The notes under the pieces are model-generated. The model had not been told where the DNA came from and ran no database searches. It worked only from the letters and a program-made list of their open reading frames with translations. Both the position numbers and the translations under genes were made by a program. Below are positions 53,698-59,279 of a DNA stretch of 64,000 nucleotides, piece by piece (the first letter of the stretch is position 1; every line of letters begins with the position of its first letter). This DNA is from Nakamurella sp. (GTDB taxonomy: Bacteria > Actinomycetota > Actinomycetes > Mycobacteriales > Nakamurellaceae): the NCBI RefSeq assembly GCF_044224575.1, contig NZ_JBGAKE010000009.1, forward strand, positions 32,162 to 96,161, given 5' to 3'.

Positions 53698-54576
53698 CTA
53701 TGCGCCTCGACGGGCCCTCGTGGCCGGACGATCGCCGGCGGGCCGGCCGGCCGGCGGCGCCTTTCGGCGACTGGTGCGCTGACATCGCACGCACCAGAAC
53801 AGGTTCCGTCCGCCGAACTCCTTCATCCGGACCGGAGTGCCGCAGACCAGGCACGGTTGGTCGGCGCGCCGGTAGACGTACACCTCGCCGCCGTGCCGGT
53901 CCACCCGAGGTGCACGGCCCATGGCGACCGGGCCGTGCTCCGGTCGGACCGTATCGATCCGGCCGCGGAGGACCGCGTCGTGCATCAGACCGACCAGGTC
54001 CGTCCAGATCGCATCCCATTCGGCACGGCGCAGGAGTCGACCCGCCATGCCGGGGTCGATGCGCTGCCGGAACAGAACCTCGGCGCGGAAGATGTTGCCC
54101 ACCCCGGCGGCCACCCGCTGATCCATCAACAACAGGCCGATGGGCGTCGCGGACGTGCGGACCCGGGCCCAGCCCGCCTCCGGTTCGGCGTCCTCGCGGA
54201 GCGGATCCGGTCCCAGCCGGTCGGTGATGGCGGCGACCTCGGCCGCGTCGACCAGCTGGCAGGCCTGTGGTCCGCGCAGGTCGGCGCAGTGCCGGTCGTT
54301 CTCCAGGCGCCAACGGATCTGGCCGAGAACCGGTCGTGCGTCGCCGTCGATGAAATTCAGCTTGCCGAGCAGCCCGAGGTGCACGTGCACGCTCCGGTCA
54401 CCGATGCGGACGAACAGGTTCTTGCCGTACGCTTCGGCCGACTCGAACCGATGACCGTCGAGATCGGCGGCCTGGTCGGCGAACCGCCCCTGCGGACTGG
54501 TCGACCGGACCGGGTCACCGGCGAACCGGTCGGTGAGCCCGGCCGCCAGGCGGTGGGTCACGTGACCTTCGGGCAT
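53698..54576 (-). CDS. nei: Fpg/Nei family DNA glycosylase
   Basis: N-terminal MPEG, YGKNL, HLGL.G, LGPDPL, LLMDQR..AGVGNIFRAE.LF, C..CG....R...WC..CQ zinc finger. Confidence 0.92.
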   Translation of the reverse strand: MPEGHVTHRLAAGLTDRFAGDPVRSTSPQGRFADQAADLDGHRFESAEAYGKNLFVRIGDRSVHVHLGLLGKLNFIDGDARPVLGQIRWRLENDRHCADLRGPQACQLVDAAEVAAITDRLGPDPLREDAEPEAGWARVRTSATPIGLLLMDQRVAAGVGNIFRAEVLFRQRIDPGMAGRLLRRAEWDAIWTDLVGLMHDAVLRGRIDTVRPEHGPVAMGRAPRVDRHGGEVYVYRRADQPCLVCGTPVRMKEFGGRNLFWCVRCQRTSRRKAPPAGRPAGDRPATRARRGA

Positions 54577-54667
54577 GCCCGGCAGTCTGCCAGGTGTGTG
54601 ACGTCGATCGACCGCGGCGGCCGCGCACGGTCCGGGCACCTCGGGCCGTCGGCGAGCACGGCGGGCG

Positions 54668-56521
54668 TCAAGCGGCCTGGCGGTCCCACAGCCGGTCGGC
54701 GGCCCGGCACATCCGCTCGAACGCCCCACCGCGAGCCAGCAGCTCCTCCGGCGCACCCTGCTCGATCACCGACCCCCGGTCGAGGACGACGACGTGGTCG
54801 GCCGACATCGCCGCCGGCATCCGGTGGGTGATGAGCAGCACCGCCCGGTTGGTGAACGATCGGCGCACCCGGTCCACCAGGTCGCGCTCGGCCATCGGGT
54901 CCAGCGGGGCGGACGGCTCGTCCAGGATGAGCATCCGGCCGCCGCGGTAGAACGTGCGGGCCAACGCGATCCGTTGCCATTGGCCGCCGGACAGCTCCGC
55001 GCCGCCGTCCTGTTCGCGGCCCAGATCGGTGTTCAGACCCTCCGGGTACCGGCGGAGCAGGTCCTCGCCACCGGCCCGGGCCAACGCGGCGCGGATCCGC
55101 TCGTCATCGCCGGGTCGGTGCACCGCCCCGAACGCCACGTTGTCCCGCAGCGTTTCCTGATAGCGCCCCGCGTCCTGCAGCAGCAGGGCGACGTCCGGCC
55201 GCCACCGGTCGGCGGCGAGTTGCGCCCGGTCGGTCCCGTCCCAGAGCACCCGTCCCGCGGTCGGCGTGAGCAGGCCGCCCAGCACGGCGGCCAGCGTCGA
55301 CTTGCCCGATCCGTTCGCGCCGACGACCGCGATCACCTGACCGGTGCGGATCCGCAGGTCGACGTCGCGCAGCGCCGGCCCGGACGCGCCCGGGTACCAC
55401 AGCGTCACTCCCTGCAACGCGACCTCGAGGGCATGGTGGGCCCCCGTGCCATGGGCCGGCGGGTCGGGACACTCGTCCGTCACGGACGGCACCGCCGCCA
55501 GCACGGCGGCGTGGTCGTCGACGAACTGGGCGGCCTCCTGCACCTGGCGGATCCCGGTGGCGGCGTCCGCCAGCCGGCCACGCAGGGCCGCGCCCACCGC
55601 GCCGGCCGCCACCGCGTCGGAAATCTGCAGGTTTCCGCCGATCAGCAGGACGAGCAGGGCGGCGAAGCCGGCGGCCAGCAGCACGCCGCCGACGGCCCGC
55701 GCGCGCAGCTGGCGCCGAGCCTTGGCCCAGGATGTGGTGGCGACCTCCCGGAATCGCTCCGCGGACAGGGTCCCGTATCGGGTGAGCAGGACCGGGGTGA
55801 GCTCGAGCGCACGGATCTCGGCGGCCCGCTCGCGCCGGGTGAGCAGTCCGGCCAGGTACATTCGCCGGCGTTCCAGCCGGGACAGCCCACGCACGGTCTC
55901 GTAGGTCTGCTCGCCGTCCCGGCGGGCCGCCCACCACAACGGCACCGCCGCCGCGATGGCGACCCCGGCCAGCCACGGCTGCACCGTCAGCACGGCAACG
56001 GTCAGGGCCGCCGCGCCGACCGCACCGGACAGCAGGATCCCCAGGCCGACCGCGAGTTGTGCGGGCCGCACGAGGGACCCGGTCTCGACCCGCTTGAGCC
56101 GGTCCAGCACCTCCGGACGGTCGAAGTCGGCCAGCGGGATCGTGCCGGCGACCCGCAGCACCTCGATGGTGGTCACCGCGGCCAGCCGTTCGCCGAGCAC
56201 GGTGGCCAACGCGGGCTGCGCGGATTGACAGATCGCCCCCGTCGCCAGCGCGGCGATCAGCAGCGTCCCCGGTCCCACCAGGGCACCCGCCGCGGGTGGC
56301 GCCGCCGAACCCGACTCGCCGAGCAGAGCCGCCGTGACGAGCTGCAGGCCCGCGACCGCGCCGACCACCGCCAGCGCCTCGACGACCTGCACCGCGAGGA
56401 CGACCAGGAACAACCTGGGGGCACCCGCCCGGGCGAGCCGGAGCCCGCGCCGGAGCATGTGGAACAGTCCGGCACGTCCGTCACCGGGTCCCGGCTCAGG
56501 CGGGGACGAGGGCGAGTTCAT
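54668..56521 (-). CDS. ABC exporter (fused permease + ATPase) with no N-terminal peptidase domain
   Basis: GANGSGKST, LSGGQWQRIALAR, ILDEPSAPLDP, LITHR; start codon lies inside the 3' end of the ATP-grasp gene. Confidence 0.92.
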   Translation of the reverse strand: MNSPSSPPEPGPGDGRAGLFHMLRRGLRLARAGAPRLFLVVLAVQVVEALAVVGAVAGLQLVTAALLGESGSAAPPAAGALVGPGTLLIAALATGAICQSAQPALATVLGERLAAVTTIEVLRVAGTIPLADFDRPEVLDRLKRVETGSLVRPAQLAVGLGILLSGAVGAAALTVAVLTVQPWLAGVAIAAAVPLWWAARRDGEQTYETVRGLSRLERRRMYLAGLLTRRERAAEIRALELTPVLLTRYGTLSAERFREVATTSWAKARRQLRARAVGGVLLAAGFAALLVLLIGGNLQISDAVAAGAVGAALRGRLADAATGIRQVQEAAQFVDDHAAVLAAVPSVTDECPDPPAHGTGAHHALEVALQGVTLWYPGASGPALRDVDLRIRTGQVIAVVGANGSGKSTLAAVLGGLLTPTAGRVLWDGTDRAQLAADRWRPDVALLLQDAGRYQETLRDNVAFGAVHRPGDDERIRAALARAGGEDLLRRYPEGLNTDLGREQDGGAELSGGQWQRIALARTFYRGGRMLILDEPSAPLDPMAERDLVDRVRRSFTNRAVLLITHRMPAAMSADHVVVLDRGSVIEQGAPEELLARGGAFERMCRAADRLWDRQAA

Positions 56522-57449
56522 TGGCCGCGAACCGCGCAAACGCCGCGGTGAGCGGCATGTCCGACATTCCCTCGACGAACAGGAATTGGCCCTGCGGGTT
56601 GATCTCCAGGAACACCACGGACCCGTCCGGCCGGATCTTCAGGTCGAAGATGCCCATCCGCAGACCGAGCCGGTCCACCACCGCGCGCAGCGCGTCCTGC
56701 AGGGTCTCGCCCAGCGGGACCGGCTCGACCTGCATGTCGCCGGCCAGGCGCCAGTCGAGGGCGGCGCTGCTGATCTTCGCGGCATGCACGTCCGGGCCGA
56801 ACACCTGAACCCTCAGATGGTCGGTGCCGGGGACCTCCTCCTGAAAGATGGTCGGCGCCAGTCGCAACTCGTTCTCGTCGGTCAGCGAATCCGACCGGAC
56901 CCGGCCCGCCTCCAAGCCGGTACCGAGCAGGCCGGTGAGGGTCTTGCCGATGACCCGGCCGCCCAGGGCGCGAGTGAACTCGCGAATCGCGGCCGGGTCG
57001 CTGCTGACCAGGGTGCGCGGCACGGTGAGCCCAACCTCCCGGGCGATGCGCAGCTGCAGCAGCTTGTTCTGCGCGCGTTCGGTGGCATACGGGTCGCTGA
57101 GCCAGGTTCCGCCGAACGCGGCCAGGAACGCACCGCGGGTGGCGGCGCGACTGTCCTTGACGACGAGTTGCCGCATGGCCCGGTCGGTGACGTACTCCGG
57201 CACCTCGGGCCGGCCGTGGCAACGCCGCCACCACACCAGGCGGAGCCGCGAGATGTCGACCGTGCCACCGTCCTCGGTCGGCAGGGTGGTTGCCTCGGGA
57301 TTCTCGTTGTCCCAGGCGACTCCCCCGGCCGCCGGGATCCGGTCCGCGGCCACGATGGCCACGTCGATGCCGTACGTCTGCGACATCGCCTGCCGGACCA
57401 GGTACGCATGGATGTCGCCTTCCAACGTCACGATCGCCATGTCGGCCAT
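56496..57449 (-). CDS. MvdC/MvdD-like ATP-grasp RiPP maturase (graspetide synthetase)
   Basis: VWWRR, NKLLQL..A.EVGL.VP.TLVS.DP, APTIFQE.VPG...LRV.VFG, DWR, LGL.MG.FDL...PDG..VFLEINPQGQFLF.E. Confidence 0.88.
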   Translation of the reverse strand: MADMAIVTLEGDIHAYLVRQAMSQTYGIDVAIVAADRIPAAGGVAWDNENPEATTLPTEDGGTVDISRLRLVWWRRCHGRPEVPEYVTDRAMRQLVVKDSRAATRGAFLAAFGGTWLSDPYATERAQNKLLQLRIAREVGLTVPRTLVSSDPAAIREFTRALGGRVIGKTLTGLLGTGLEAGRVRSDSLTDENELRLAPTIFQEEVPGTDHLRVQVFGPDVHAAKISSAALDWRLAGDMQVEPVPLGETLQDALRAVVDRLGLRMGIFDLKIRPDGSVVFLEINPQGQFLFVEGMSDMPLTAAFARFAANELALVPA

Positions 57450-57500
57450 TTGCGTCGTCCTATCGATATGTCGACCGGTCAGCCCGGGAGAATGTCTGAT

Positions 57501-57531
57501 TTCAGTGATGCTTCAGTGATGCTTCAGGATG
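57501..57531. repeat. 11-bp direct repeat TTCAGTGATGC x2 plus a degenerate third copy
   Basis: Read directly: TTCAGTGATGC TTCAGTGATGC TTCAG-GATG. Confidence 0.85.
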
Positions 57532-57540
57532 GGCGCGCCA

Positions 57541-57574
57541 GACCGGTGGGGACCCCGCGGGTTCCCCACCGGTC
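57541..57574. terminator. Strong stem-loop between the precursor and ATP-grasp genes
   Basis: GACCGGTGGGGA / TCCCCACCGGTC perfect 12-bp stem with an inner CCC/GGG; no clear U-tract. Confidence 0.7.
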
Positions 57575-57626
57575 GGTACTGCTGGTTACTGCGTGTCGTG
57601 CCGGTTCGATCTAGTGGATGAGGTGC

Positions 57627-57815
57627 TCACTCGTCGCAATCGTCCCAGCCGTCGTCGCAGCCGGAGATGGAGCCGCCCGGCCACTTCGGCCGGGCCATCT
57701 GCGGGAGCGAGGCGAAAGCCCTTTTCTCCCAACGGTCGAGTCGCTCCGGGTGCACGTATCCATCGTGAGTCCGGGTGAACCGGCCCGCGACGGGGGCAGT
57801 CGGCATCGCCAACAT
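57627..57815 (-). CDS. Putative graspetide precursor peptide (62 aa; C-terminus PKWPGG-SISGCDDGWDDCDE)
   Basis: AGGAGG RBS 7 nt before the ATG; Ser/Cys/Asp/Glu-rich C-terminus; first gene before the ATP-grasp and ABC genes on the same strand. Confidence 0.85.
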   Translation of the reverse strand: MLAMPTAPVAGRFTRTHDGYVHPERLDRWEKRAFASLPQMARPKWPGGSISGCDDGWDDCDE

Positions 57816-58064
57816 TGCTTAACCTCCTGGATTGAGTTCCGGACCTTGTGTCCGGCAACGCGAATCAGGAGCGGCGACGATCTCCCGCGATACACCGCCG
57901 GCCAGTGAATTCGAGAGTTCCCGCCCTCCTTCACTTTCGCCGCAGCAGGGATCCGGCAGCACCCGTGACGGCTCGAGCGCCGCGGCACCGGCGACGGAGG
58001 AGGGCCGATCGCCGCTGCGGGGCCGGATGTCTCACCACGGGTCCGGTCGATCGCCGGGCGGGTG

Positions 58065-59279
58065 TCAGGACGCGACGATTCCGGCGACCGGGTCGCCGGC
58101 CAGGTAGACCGCGGCCACCGCGCGGACGGCGGCCCCGACGTCGTCGTTCGGGTCGCCGTCGACCAGCACCAGGTCGGCGTCGTGACCGGGGCGGAGCCGT
58201 CCCTTGCGGTCGCCGACACCGCAGATCGTCGCGGCAGTCGAGGTCGCCGCGGTGAGCACCTGCGCGGCGGACAGCCCACCCTCGGCGAACAGGTCGATCG
58301 CCTCCCGGAGGTGACCGTGGGCGAGCCACGGATTCAGTCCGGCGTCGAGCCCGGTCGCCACCGGCACCCCGGCGTCGACCAGCCGGCGGATCATCTGCGC
58401 GCGCCACGCCCGGACGAGTTCGGGCGTCTGCCCGGTGGCCGCTAGATGTTCGCGCACGGCGGGCGGGGCGAGATCCAGATTCGTCGTCGGGGGAATCACC
58501 CCGCTGACCGCCACCTGCCGCTCGGCGAGCGTCGCGAGCAACGACTCCGGCAGCTCGGTTCCGGTGCCCCGAAAGCAGCTGCAGTGCTCGATCCCGTCGA
58601 CGCCGGCCGCGACGGCCTGCTCGATGGCGGTCAGCCAGTGGGCGTGCGCCGTGACCGGCAGGCCGGCGGCGTGGGCCTCCCGCACGATGTGGGCCAGGTC
58701 CCCGTCGGTGAACTGGGTCTGCACCGTTGCGGTGCCGGGCGTCGACATCCCACCGCTGGCCATGACCTTGATCAGATCAGCACCCCGGTCGGCGTGCTCG
58801 CGGATCGCTCGGGTGATGGTCGCAGGTCCGTCGACCGCGCCGCCAAGGAAGTGGCAGTGCCCGGCCGGCACCGTGATCGGCGGACCGGATGCGATCACCG
58901 CCGGTTCCGGAGCGCGTCCCGGGCCGGAGCGAGACCGGTGCCGCAGCACCGCGTAATCGCGATCACCCAGATCGCGGACCGTGGTCACCCCGGCCGCCAG
59001 GTGATGACGCAGCGATTCGCCGATCACCGGTTCCAGGTCGCCGTCACCAGCCGCTCGATCGAGGGCACCCGGCCGGCTGTCACAGACCAGATGGACGTGG
59101 GTGTCGATGAGCCCGGGCAGGGCCGTCAGATCAGTCGCATCCACAATCCGGCAGTCGGATCCGATGTCCGGGTGACCGTCTTCGACGCCGACCACCATGC
59201 CGCCGTCGAGGACGACGGTGGCCGGCCCCGGGGTGAATCCTTGGCCGTCGAACACCCGGGCACATCGGATCGCGCGCAC
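58065..59279 (-). CDS. Metal-dependent amidohydrolase (Xaa-Pro dipeptidase/imidazolonepropionase-like)
   Basis: LPGLIDTHVHL, GVTTVRD.G, IKVMASGG, AHAH, IEHCS, G.L.PG.DADLV. Confidence 0.85.
   Translation of the reverse strand: MRAIRCARVFDGQGFTPGPATVVLDGGMVVGVEDGHPDIGSDCRIVDATDLTALPGLIDTHVHLVCDSRPGALDRAAGDGDLEPVIGESLRHHLAAGVTTVRDLGDRDYAVLRHRSRSGPGRAPEPAVIASGPPITVPAGHCHFLGGAVDGPATITRAIREHADRGADLIKVMASGGMSTPGTATVQTQFTDGDLAHIVREAHAAGLPVTAHAHWLTAIEQAVAAGVDGIEHCSCFRGTGTELPESLLATLAERQVAVSGVIPPTTNLDLAPPAVREHLAATGQTPELVRAWRAQMIRRLVDAGVPVATGLDAGLNPWLAHGHLREAIDLFAEGGLSAAQVLTAATSTAATICGVGDRKGRLRPGHDADLVLVDGDPNDDVGAAVRAVAAVYLAGDPVAGIVAS

Follow-up and report, generated by a model that had tools for sequence, protein, structure and literature searches.

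A compact gene cluster for a probable omega-ester graspetide in a Nakamurella-like actinobacterium

Introduction

More and more constrained multicyclic peptides are coming from the graspetides, a class that includes several potent protease inhibitors. Here we ask whether three adjacent genes in a 64,000-nucleotide stretch of DNA from a Nakamurella-like actinobacterium (contig NZ_JBGAKE010000009.1, positions 32,162 to 96,161; hereafter, the window) make a peptide of this class, which cross-links that peptide would carry, and how far the system is new. The genes are co-oriented on the minus strand and encode a 62-aa precursor, a 317-aa ATP-grasp ligase and an ATP-binding cassette (ABC) half-transporter. 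A first-pass annotation, made from the letters of the window alone, had described them as a minimal cluster for a graspetide, one type of peptide synthesised by ribosomes and then modified post-translationally (RiPP), that fits no characterised group and is a candidate new system. Our analysis makes it quite probable that they form a three-gene graspetide (omega-ester RiPP) operon working by the mechanism set out in the Discussion.

Graspetide chemistry and group definitions follow Carter et al. 2026 (PMC13097080), and cluster 5178, cluster 270 and branch 3 are those of Makarova et al. 2022 (PMC8939145). The window locus is denoted WIN and the genomic loci of its close relatives L001-L018, giving 19 family loci in total.

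Results

A selected precursor gene adjoins the ligase gene

The positions of the open reading frames (ORFs) confirmed the layout drawn by the first-pass annotation, including the ideal AGGAGG ribosome-binding site (RBS) that it had seen in front of the 62-aa ORF. This precursor ORF (MLAMPTAPVAGRFTRTHDGYVHPERLDRWEKRAFASLPQMARPKWPGGSISGCDDGWDDCDE; 57627-57815, minus strand) starts with an ATG 7 nt after the RBS (57823-57828). The ligase gene follows at 56496-57449 (minus), and the ABC gene (54668-56521, minus; 617 aa from ATG 56521, with an alternative start at TTG 56539) begins inside the 3' end of the ligase gene, an overlap that had also been claimed and that measures 26 nt from the ATG or 44 nt from the TTG.

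The 62-aa ORF is a genuine, selected gene. It lies directly upstream of the ligase gene in 18 of 18 close loci, with a variant core in one of them (L011), and the protein collection held 15 precursor homologues. Synonymous and non-synonymous codon differences numbered 10 and 1 against L001, 16 and 2 against L002, and 21 and 3 against L003; over 17 core codons, seven comparisons gave 1-7 synonymous and 0-2 non-synonymous differences. These counts show purifying selection on the precursor gene.

The precursor alignment (A1), together with hhalign, delimits a leader of residues 1-48 (57672-57815, minus), in which P8, R12, F13, R15, Y20, P23, L26, W29 and E30 are conserved and all of these except P8 are invariant. 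The window precursor carries this motif as P-V-A-G-R-F ... Y-V-H-P-x-R-L-D-x-W-E. The leader probably ends at the P46-G47-G48 site, and from P46 onwards the precursors share an invariant P46-G-G-S-I-S-G ... G-W-D-D-x-D. The core that follows, placed by invariance in A1 and by codon comparison, has 14 residues, S-I-S-G-C-D-D-G-W-D-D-C-D-E (SISGCDDGWDDCDE; residues 49-62, with the stop codon 57627-57671, minus), of which S49, I50, S51, G52, G56, W57, D58, D59 and D61 are invariant in A1.

The ligase has the fold of graspetide synthetases

Three graspetide maturase models were the best NCBIfam matches of the ligase, TIGR04187 with 162 bits, MvdC with 145 and MvdD with 133 (1.7e-47 to 1.6e-38). 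These scores lie far under the respective cut-offs of 350, 425 and 475 bits, and the enzyme therefore belongs to none of the three families. Its sequence matches in the PDB were MdnB (4.8e-36), MdnC (4.9e-29), AMdnB, PruB, PsnB and CdnC. An AlphaFold (AF2) model built from 36 homologues reached a mean predicted local distance difference test score (pLDDT) of 91.7, and the top 32 Foldseek hits of this model were all graspetide macrocyclases, with RimK and LysX appearing only after them; the template modelling (TM) score to precursor-bound MdnC was 0.86. Residues invariant in the 36 homologues include K169, Q203, H211, R213, D232-W233-R234, E282, N284 and Q286-G287-Q288, which, from general knowledge of the fold, we take to be the ATP-grasp nucleotide and Mg2+ site; the motifs NKLLQL, APTIFQE, DWR and FLEINPQGQFLF quoted in the first-pass annotation are all present exactly. 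By sequence matches and predicted structure, the ligase is a graspetide synthetase (ATP-grasp macrocyclase) with the fold of MdnB, MdnC and PsnB.

When one genome per species was scanned with the ligase alignment, 432 relatives were confirmed, with the branch whose cores carry a W-D-D motif present in at least four phyla. In 18 of the retained loci the ligase is 63-93% identical to that of the window, the nearest (93% and 89%) coming from Nakamurella metagenome-assembled genomes (MAGs). An IQ-TREE phylogeny of 78 ligases placed the window in a clade of 18 with 100/100 support and a stem of 0.42, found in Nakamurella, Intrasporangiaceae and relatives, and nested in a larger clade of loci mostly with W-D-D cores. 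The host genome holds a second graspetide-type ATP-grasp gene (contig C43 of G000, 54378-55460; L090:3378-4460, + strand), with 141 bits to TIGR04187, below cut-off, and 37% identity to the window ligase over residues 117-299; its neighbours gave no NCBIfam match at E<=1e-5, no precursor search being made there, and a UbiE-like methyltransferase gene lies about 6 kb off.

A minimal graspetide cluster related to published precursor families

Two features of the class, an MvdC/MvdD-type ATP-grasp ligase and an adjacent conserved precursor with a leader and a core of donors and acceptors, were both found here, and the identification as a graspetide RiPP gene cluster of minimal type is well supported. 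The annotation's reading of a minimal graspetide cluster is thus upheld by the ligase sequence and its predicted fold, the conserved adjacent precursor and the dedicated exporter described below. Its proposal of a new system is not supported, since genome mining has already put the precursor family on record as cluster 5178 and its core matches the representative of another published group.

Makarova et al. 2022 list the precursor MKALSPMSARFTRSHEGYSHPPKLDAWEQTVVGPESARIAWPGGSISGCDDGWDDCDE as 'cluster 5178', one of 174 final precursor families; it consists of a single sequence, from Intrasporangiaceae bacterium URHB0013, and is a distant homologue of cluster 270, with an ATP-grasp enzyme of 'branch 3' (PMC8939145). 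The published locus is our L008. It shares with the window an identical core, the same leader motif and a ligase that is 69% identical and falls in the same 100/100 clade, but it has no ABC exporter, its precursor has 58 aa against 62, and its spacer between precursor and ligase is 47 nt long and has no hairpin; the published entry is a single sequence without analysis (Makarova et al. 2022). Carter et al. 2026 define a 'graspetide group 28' of 120 precursors, represented by Thermomonospora amylolytica ...HPDETISGSGDGWDDCDYMP (PMC13097080, Fig. S5), and they describe clusters of this group as made up of a synthetase and a precursor alone, leaving the group uncharacterised. Precursors of the group 28/5178 type are stated as new in Makarova et al. 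(PMC8939145) and in Carter et al. (PMC13097080).

The core of the window family, S-I-S-G-[S/C]-x-x-G-W-D-D-[C/S]-D, matches the group 28 representative. More broadly, the window and cluster 270/group 28 both have a core of the form [S/T]-I-S-G-S-x-D-G-W-D-D-C-D and a leader ending in L-x-x-W-E. An hhalign comparison of the window family with 14 cluster-270/group-28-type precursors, the representative included, gave 99% probability (E 8.8e-18) across leader and core, the aligned leader of that type carrying P-h-h-x-F ... L-x-x-W-E, and cluster 270/group 28 ligases are 40-50% identical to that of the window and sit in the same larger clade. Unlike cluster 270/group 28, the window family has P-G-G directly before the core, a one-residue tail after the last Asp and a shorter leader, with R-F-T-R-x-H in place of V-F-x-F-Q-P-T; part of it also has a dedicated ABC exporter, in contrast to the synthetase and precursor alone of group 28. 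Network scores were estimated from bit scores. Against L045, L060 and L062, ligases of the cluster-270 type of which two are actinobacterial, they came to 60-65, and against other W-D-D ligases to 70-79. Because these estimates straddle the published threshold of 70, formal membership in group 28 is borderline. A metagenomic protein of 91 aa (P0266) combines a cluster-270-type leader (PAVFMFQPTHY...ELREWE) with the P-G-G-S-I-S-G-S-G-R-G-W-D-D-C-D-E core of the window family, and this hybrid links the cluster-270 type and the window family directly.

Characterised graspetides are more remote. Microviridin (MdnA/MdnB/MdnC; group 1) has in common with the window the ligase fold, the leader-directed logic and the expected Ser/Thr-to-Asp/Glu esters; the window, however, lacks a PFFARFL leader motif (as had been noticed in the first-pass annotation), a TxKYPSD core, a Lys for a lactam and a GNAT gene, and it has one ligase instead of two, scoring 145/133 bits against MvdC/MvdD cut-offs of 425/475. 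Plesiocin (PsnA/PsnB; group 2) also relies on a single ligase and, plausibly like the window product, on nested Ser/Thr-to-acid lactones around a turn, and PsnB is a structural match. Its cores are repeats of TTxxxxEE that use Thr and Glu, whereas the window has a single core, in agreement with the annotation's remark that the core is not multi-repeat, and uses Ser and Asp; structural alignments give 22-25% identity to PsnB. The graspimiditides (fuscimiditide, amycolimiditide; group 13; TIGR04186/04187/04188) are actinobacterial like the window, and TIGR04187 is the best NCBIfam model of its ligase, but at 162 bits against a cut-off of 350, and the precursor has no TIGR04186 match. A RiPP-type protein isoaspartyl methyltransferase (PIMT; TIGR04188) was absent from the cluster, as annotated, and no protein of the genome scored above the cut-off (best 37.9 bits against 380). 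Without a PIMT or a microviridin leader or core, and with a ligase that falls short of the TIGR04187, MvdC and MvdD cut-offs, the cluster indeed fits no characterised group, and the ligase did not cluster with a characterised group having the same core. In the searchable literature, which includes few subscription journals, we found no report of a structure, ring topology or activity for members of the W-D-D branch, cluster 270/group 28 included; core strings gave nothing relevant in main texts, their only matches being in supplementary files, and searches for characterised relatives by genus name gave nothing relevant.

Core conservation points to Ser-to-Asp lactones

The core was aligned more widely with others of the W-D-D type, giving 42 cores (that of the window among them) from 40 loci of Actinomycetota, Pseudomonadota, Cyanobacteriota and Acidobacteriota. 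Counted from the Trp, all 42 have S/T at W-8, S/T at W-6, S/C at W-4 and D-D at W+1/W+2; Gly stands at W-5 in 41 and at W-1 in 37, and Asp at W+4 in 37. Position W-4 is Ser in 27 cores and Cys in 15, and W+3 is Cys in 23 and Ser in 19. Among 35 distinct P-G-G-type precursors, residues 53 and 60 are Cys or Ser only, as the pairs S/C (18), C/C (14), S/S (3) and C/S (0). Residue 53 falls in step with the invariant donors S49 and S51, continuing their i, i+2, i+4 series.

These conserved core features lead to a minimal prediction of two lactones, joining Ser49 and Ser51 to Asp58 and Asp59, with a third link from residue 53 to Asp61 being possible. The product is most likely a peptide with two or three Ser-to-Asp lactone rings.

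Some related loci depart from the common plan. In a Micrococcales MAG (L011:5304-5960) the ligase is 66% identical to that of the window and the core is GTISCSSCGCDDCDE, with the Trp and two Gly replaced and five Cys. An Acidimicrobiales MAG (L019:2898-3534) has two tandem precursor genes with differing W-D-D cores (...PGGSVTGCNGGWDDCDD and ...YLTVSASGDCWDDCDYV) upstream of one ligase gene. Loci L020-L041, from Proteobacteria and Cyanobacteria, have W-D-D cores with Cys residues at W-10 and close to the C-terminus, as in HCATISGSDGGWDDSDCW, and Ser at W+3; this Cys pair suggests a disulfide bracketing the lactone region.

A peptidase-less ABC half-transporter is dedicated to the cluster

The ABC gene ends at 54668 and has candidate starts at TTG 56539, at ATG 56521 and, downstream of the ligase stop, at a third ATG, 56458. 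The ORF list begins the gene at the TTG, and the start conserved in homologous loci is ATG 56521 ('MNSP...'). The nucleotide-binding domain is recognised by ABC_tran (PF00005, 5.8e-28), with Walker A at 401, LSGGQ at 510 and Walker B at 530. About six hydrophobic segments are present, and the membrane domain is divergent, without a PF00664 match. The protein is similar lengthwise to MsbA-, HlyB-, CydC- and NHLM-type exporters, the match beginning after their peptidase region, and its TIGR03796 match begins at profile position 220; the N-terminal C39 domain that defines a peptidase-containing ABC transporter (PCAT) is lacking.

An exporter gene stands directly downstream of the ligase gene in 7 of the 19 family loci (WIN, L001-3, L007, L015 and L018). 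Despite differing flanks, the exporter frame runs into the ligase end in WIN, L002, L003, L007 and L015. The window exporter has about 29 sequence clusters related to it at 55% identity or above, and the next relatives follow at 35%. Many of the close exporters stand on contigs with the same lengths as contigs that bear ligase or precursor homologues. On each of two further exporter contigs that we fetched, the gene order of precursor, ligase and ABC gene recurs, and among the cases checked the subfamily of at least 55% identity was seen only with this cluster; a relative at 35% identity has no ligase beside it. The ABC half-transporter is dedicated to the cluster and translationally coupled to the ligase.

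A conserved hairpin separates precursor and ligase

Folding, together with conservation, revealed a G+C-rich hairpin with a stem of about 14 bp between the precursor and ligase genes (57541-57574, minus). Its core, GGTGGGGA.C....GGGGTCCCC.CC, does not vary among WIN, L001, L002 and L003, in which the surrounding spacer diverges, and the base of the stem shows paired changes, from C-G to G-C in L002 and of two pairs to A-T in L003. At the same place, the hairpin of Lapillicoccus loci is a different one. Attenuation of read-through after the precursor gene is common in RiPP operons, and the hairpin likely acts as an attenuator or partial terminator of this kind. A scan of the hairpin region for U-tract-type terminators returned nothing, which is uninformative for an actinobacterium of 71% G+C.

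The spacer from the hairpin to the ligase gene also contains three CTGAA repeats (57495-57527, minus; CTGAAGCATCA CTGAAGCATCA CTGAAATCAGACA). L001 keeps the repeats and the TCTCCCGGGC that comes after them, and one CTGAA is shared without change by the four Nakamurella-clade loci; an internal promoter or a binding site for a regulator may lie here. The main promoter is presumed to lie, with the RBS, in the upstream intergenic region (57816-58064, minus), and is inferred only, because a sigma-70 consensus scan upstream of the precursor found none; the consensus is itself uninformative at this G+C content.

Distribution and neighbouring genes

The genus was represented by 36 other species, of which only one has an intact close homologue and another has one that is broken into two pieces, with a truncated exporter. 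In L018:6060-6930 (= G024:C19), from a species of the same genus, the ligase gene is split into two frames, the exporter frame is truncated and the precursor is intact, ending ...CDK; this looks like a decaying copy. Base composition and third-position G+C (GC3) of the cluster do not depart from those of its flanks and hence give no island signal. With its patchy distribution, the cluster counts as an accessory trait.

No neighbour other than the exporter is conserved across the family, and only the nearest relatives share the flanking genes of the window. Upstream lies an amidohydrolase gene (58065-59279), which we ruled out as the leader peptidase, it being absent from L001-L018. Downstream lies an Fpg/Nei glycosylase ORF, listed with 352 aa (53698-54756, minus), which we ruled out as part of the cluster, synteny being found only in the closest relative, L001. 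As listed, this ORF seems to overlap the end of the ABC gene; its glycosylase domain begins at residue 61 (MPEGH...), and its start is therefore probably ATG 54576, 91 nt downstream of the ABC stop.

Discussion

How, then, would the three genes work together? In the pathway that we propose, the strong RBS and the conserved hairpin after the precursor gene would provide more precursor than enzyme. The ligase would bind the leader and, at the expense of ATP, phosphorylate the invariant Asp58 and Asp59, perhaps also Asp61, on their side-chain carboxylates, and the hydroxyls of the invariant Ser49 and Ser51, perhaps with residue 53, would attack these acyl phosphates. Two, possibly three, macrolactone rings would form around the G-W turn, each with a loss of 18 Da, and the ABC protein, as a homodimer, would export the product. 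Protease inhibition, as in microviridins and plesiocin, is the precedent for its activity.

Several observations weigh against parts of this pathway. Ring number and connectivity are not derivable from the sequence, which offers four candidate donors (S49, S51, C53 and C60) and up to six acidic acceptors. Both the best PDB sequence match and the higher NCBIfam score are to amide-forming MdnB/MvdC and not to ester-forming MdnC/MvdD, an order that the fold search reverses. We found no C39 peptidase (PF03412) in the ABC protein or in the genome, which is 95.9% complete, and no candidate leader peptidase. With 12 of the 19 loci lacking an exporter, ABC export is not essential to the family, and the hairpin lacks a U-tract in the window and is missing in those members of the family whose spacer is 40-50 nt long.

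One set of alternatives concerns the nature of the cross-links. Cys53 and/or Cys60 might form a natural thioester (thiolactone), instead of or beside the Ser lactones, or a C53-C60 disulfide might staple the lactone rings; we think either improbable, although Cys and Ser are the sole alternatives at residues 53 and 60, as the pair counts in the 35 precursors and the W-4/W+3 counts in the 42 cores attest, and position 53 continues the donor spacing of S49 and S51. The introduction of one recent paper adds that graspetide synthetases are able to install non-native thioesters (PMC13097080). The same Cys/Ser exchange, however, is also expected of a merely small polar position, the two codons being one mutation apart, and, once secreted, a product with a thioester would be labile. 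We also know of no natural graspetide thioester. The disulfide cannot be general, being possible in only 14 of the 35 precursors, since the other 21 have one Cys or none at positions 53 and 60. A narrower form, in which Cys53 is the third donor position and the ligase installs a native side-chain thioester in Cys variants such as that of the window, draws on the continuation of the S49/S51 series by a residue that is Ser in about half of the relatives. We consider it slightly less probable still; if true, it would be the first native thioester-cross-linked graspetide. Omega-amide (isopeptide) bonds of the MdnB/MvdC kind, formed through Lys44 or an N-terminal amine exposed by leader removal, would accord with the top PDB sequence match to MdnB (4.8e-36) and with the higher score to TIGR04185 (MvdC, 144.8 bits) than to TIGR04184 (MvdD, 132.7 bits). 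Yet position 44 is K, R, V, I or S in A1, the core has no Lys, the conserved nucleophiles are Ser/Thr and the best structural match is ester-forming MdnC. As Lys44 is not conserved, a lactam is unlikely despite these slightly better sequence matches, and we give amide formation very little credence.

Ser-to-Asp lactones thus remain our preferred chemistry, and the roles of the precursor ORF and the ABC gene have to be weighed as well. Were the ORF a chance reading frame, with the ATP-grasp enzyme acting on a non-RiPP substrate, it would come as no surprise that the 62-aa product goes unmatched by Pfam and NCBIfam models and that a profile search of 1.84 billion protein representatives returned 12 matches only. 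That small number mainly shows how rarely gene callers call such small genes, and the chance reading is already contradicted by the present data: the ORF adjoins the ligase and is kept in every close locus, differences between homologues are mostly synonymous, and homology to published precursors extends over its leader and core. Its likelihood is close to nil. For the ABC protein to be a self-immunity pump or an unrelated neighbour and no peptide exporter is also unlikely, if far less so. The gene is absent from the majority of family loci, Carter et al. describe group 28 as synthetase and precursor only, and the protein has no peptidase domain; set against this, its candidate starts overlap the ligase stop, its position is kept in Nakamurella, Jatrophihabitans and other lineages with different flanking genes, and identity in the subfamily falls from 55% to 35% outside the cluster, with the two extra contigs carrying precursor and ligase. 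Immunity and export are, moreover, compatible with each other.

As a family, these precursors had already been catalogued by genome mining, and the searchable literature yielded no report of their chemistry. What is new here is the size of the family and its 100/100 ligase clade, its homology to group 28/cluster 270, the peptidase-less dedicated exporter in part of it, the hairpin after the precursor gene and the Cys/Ser pattern of the core. The lack of a C39 peptidase anywhere raises the separate question of leader removal. With one precursor, one ligase, one exporter and no tailoring genes, the window cluster is a compact entry to the W-D-D branch, and its clear P-G-G boundary and 14-residue core suggest that it could be expressed as it is. 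Solving its product would test whether the Cys/Ser-alternating positions join in cross-linking, and would also give the ring topology for group 28/cluster 270.

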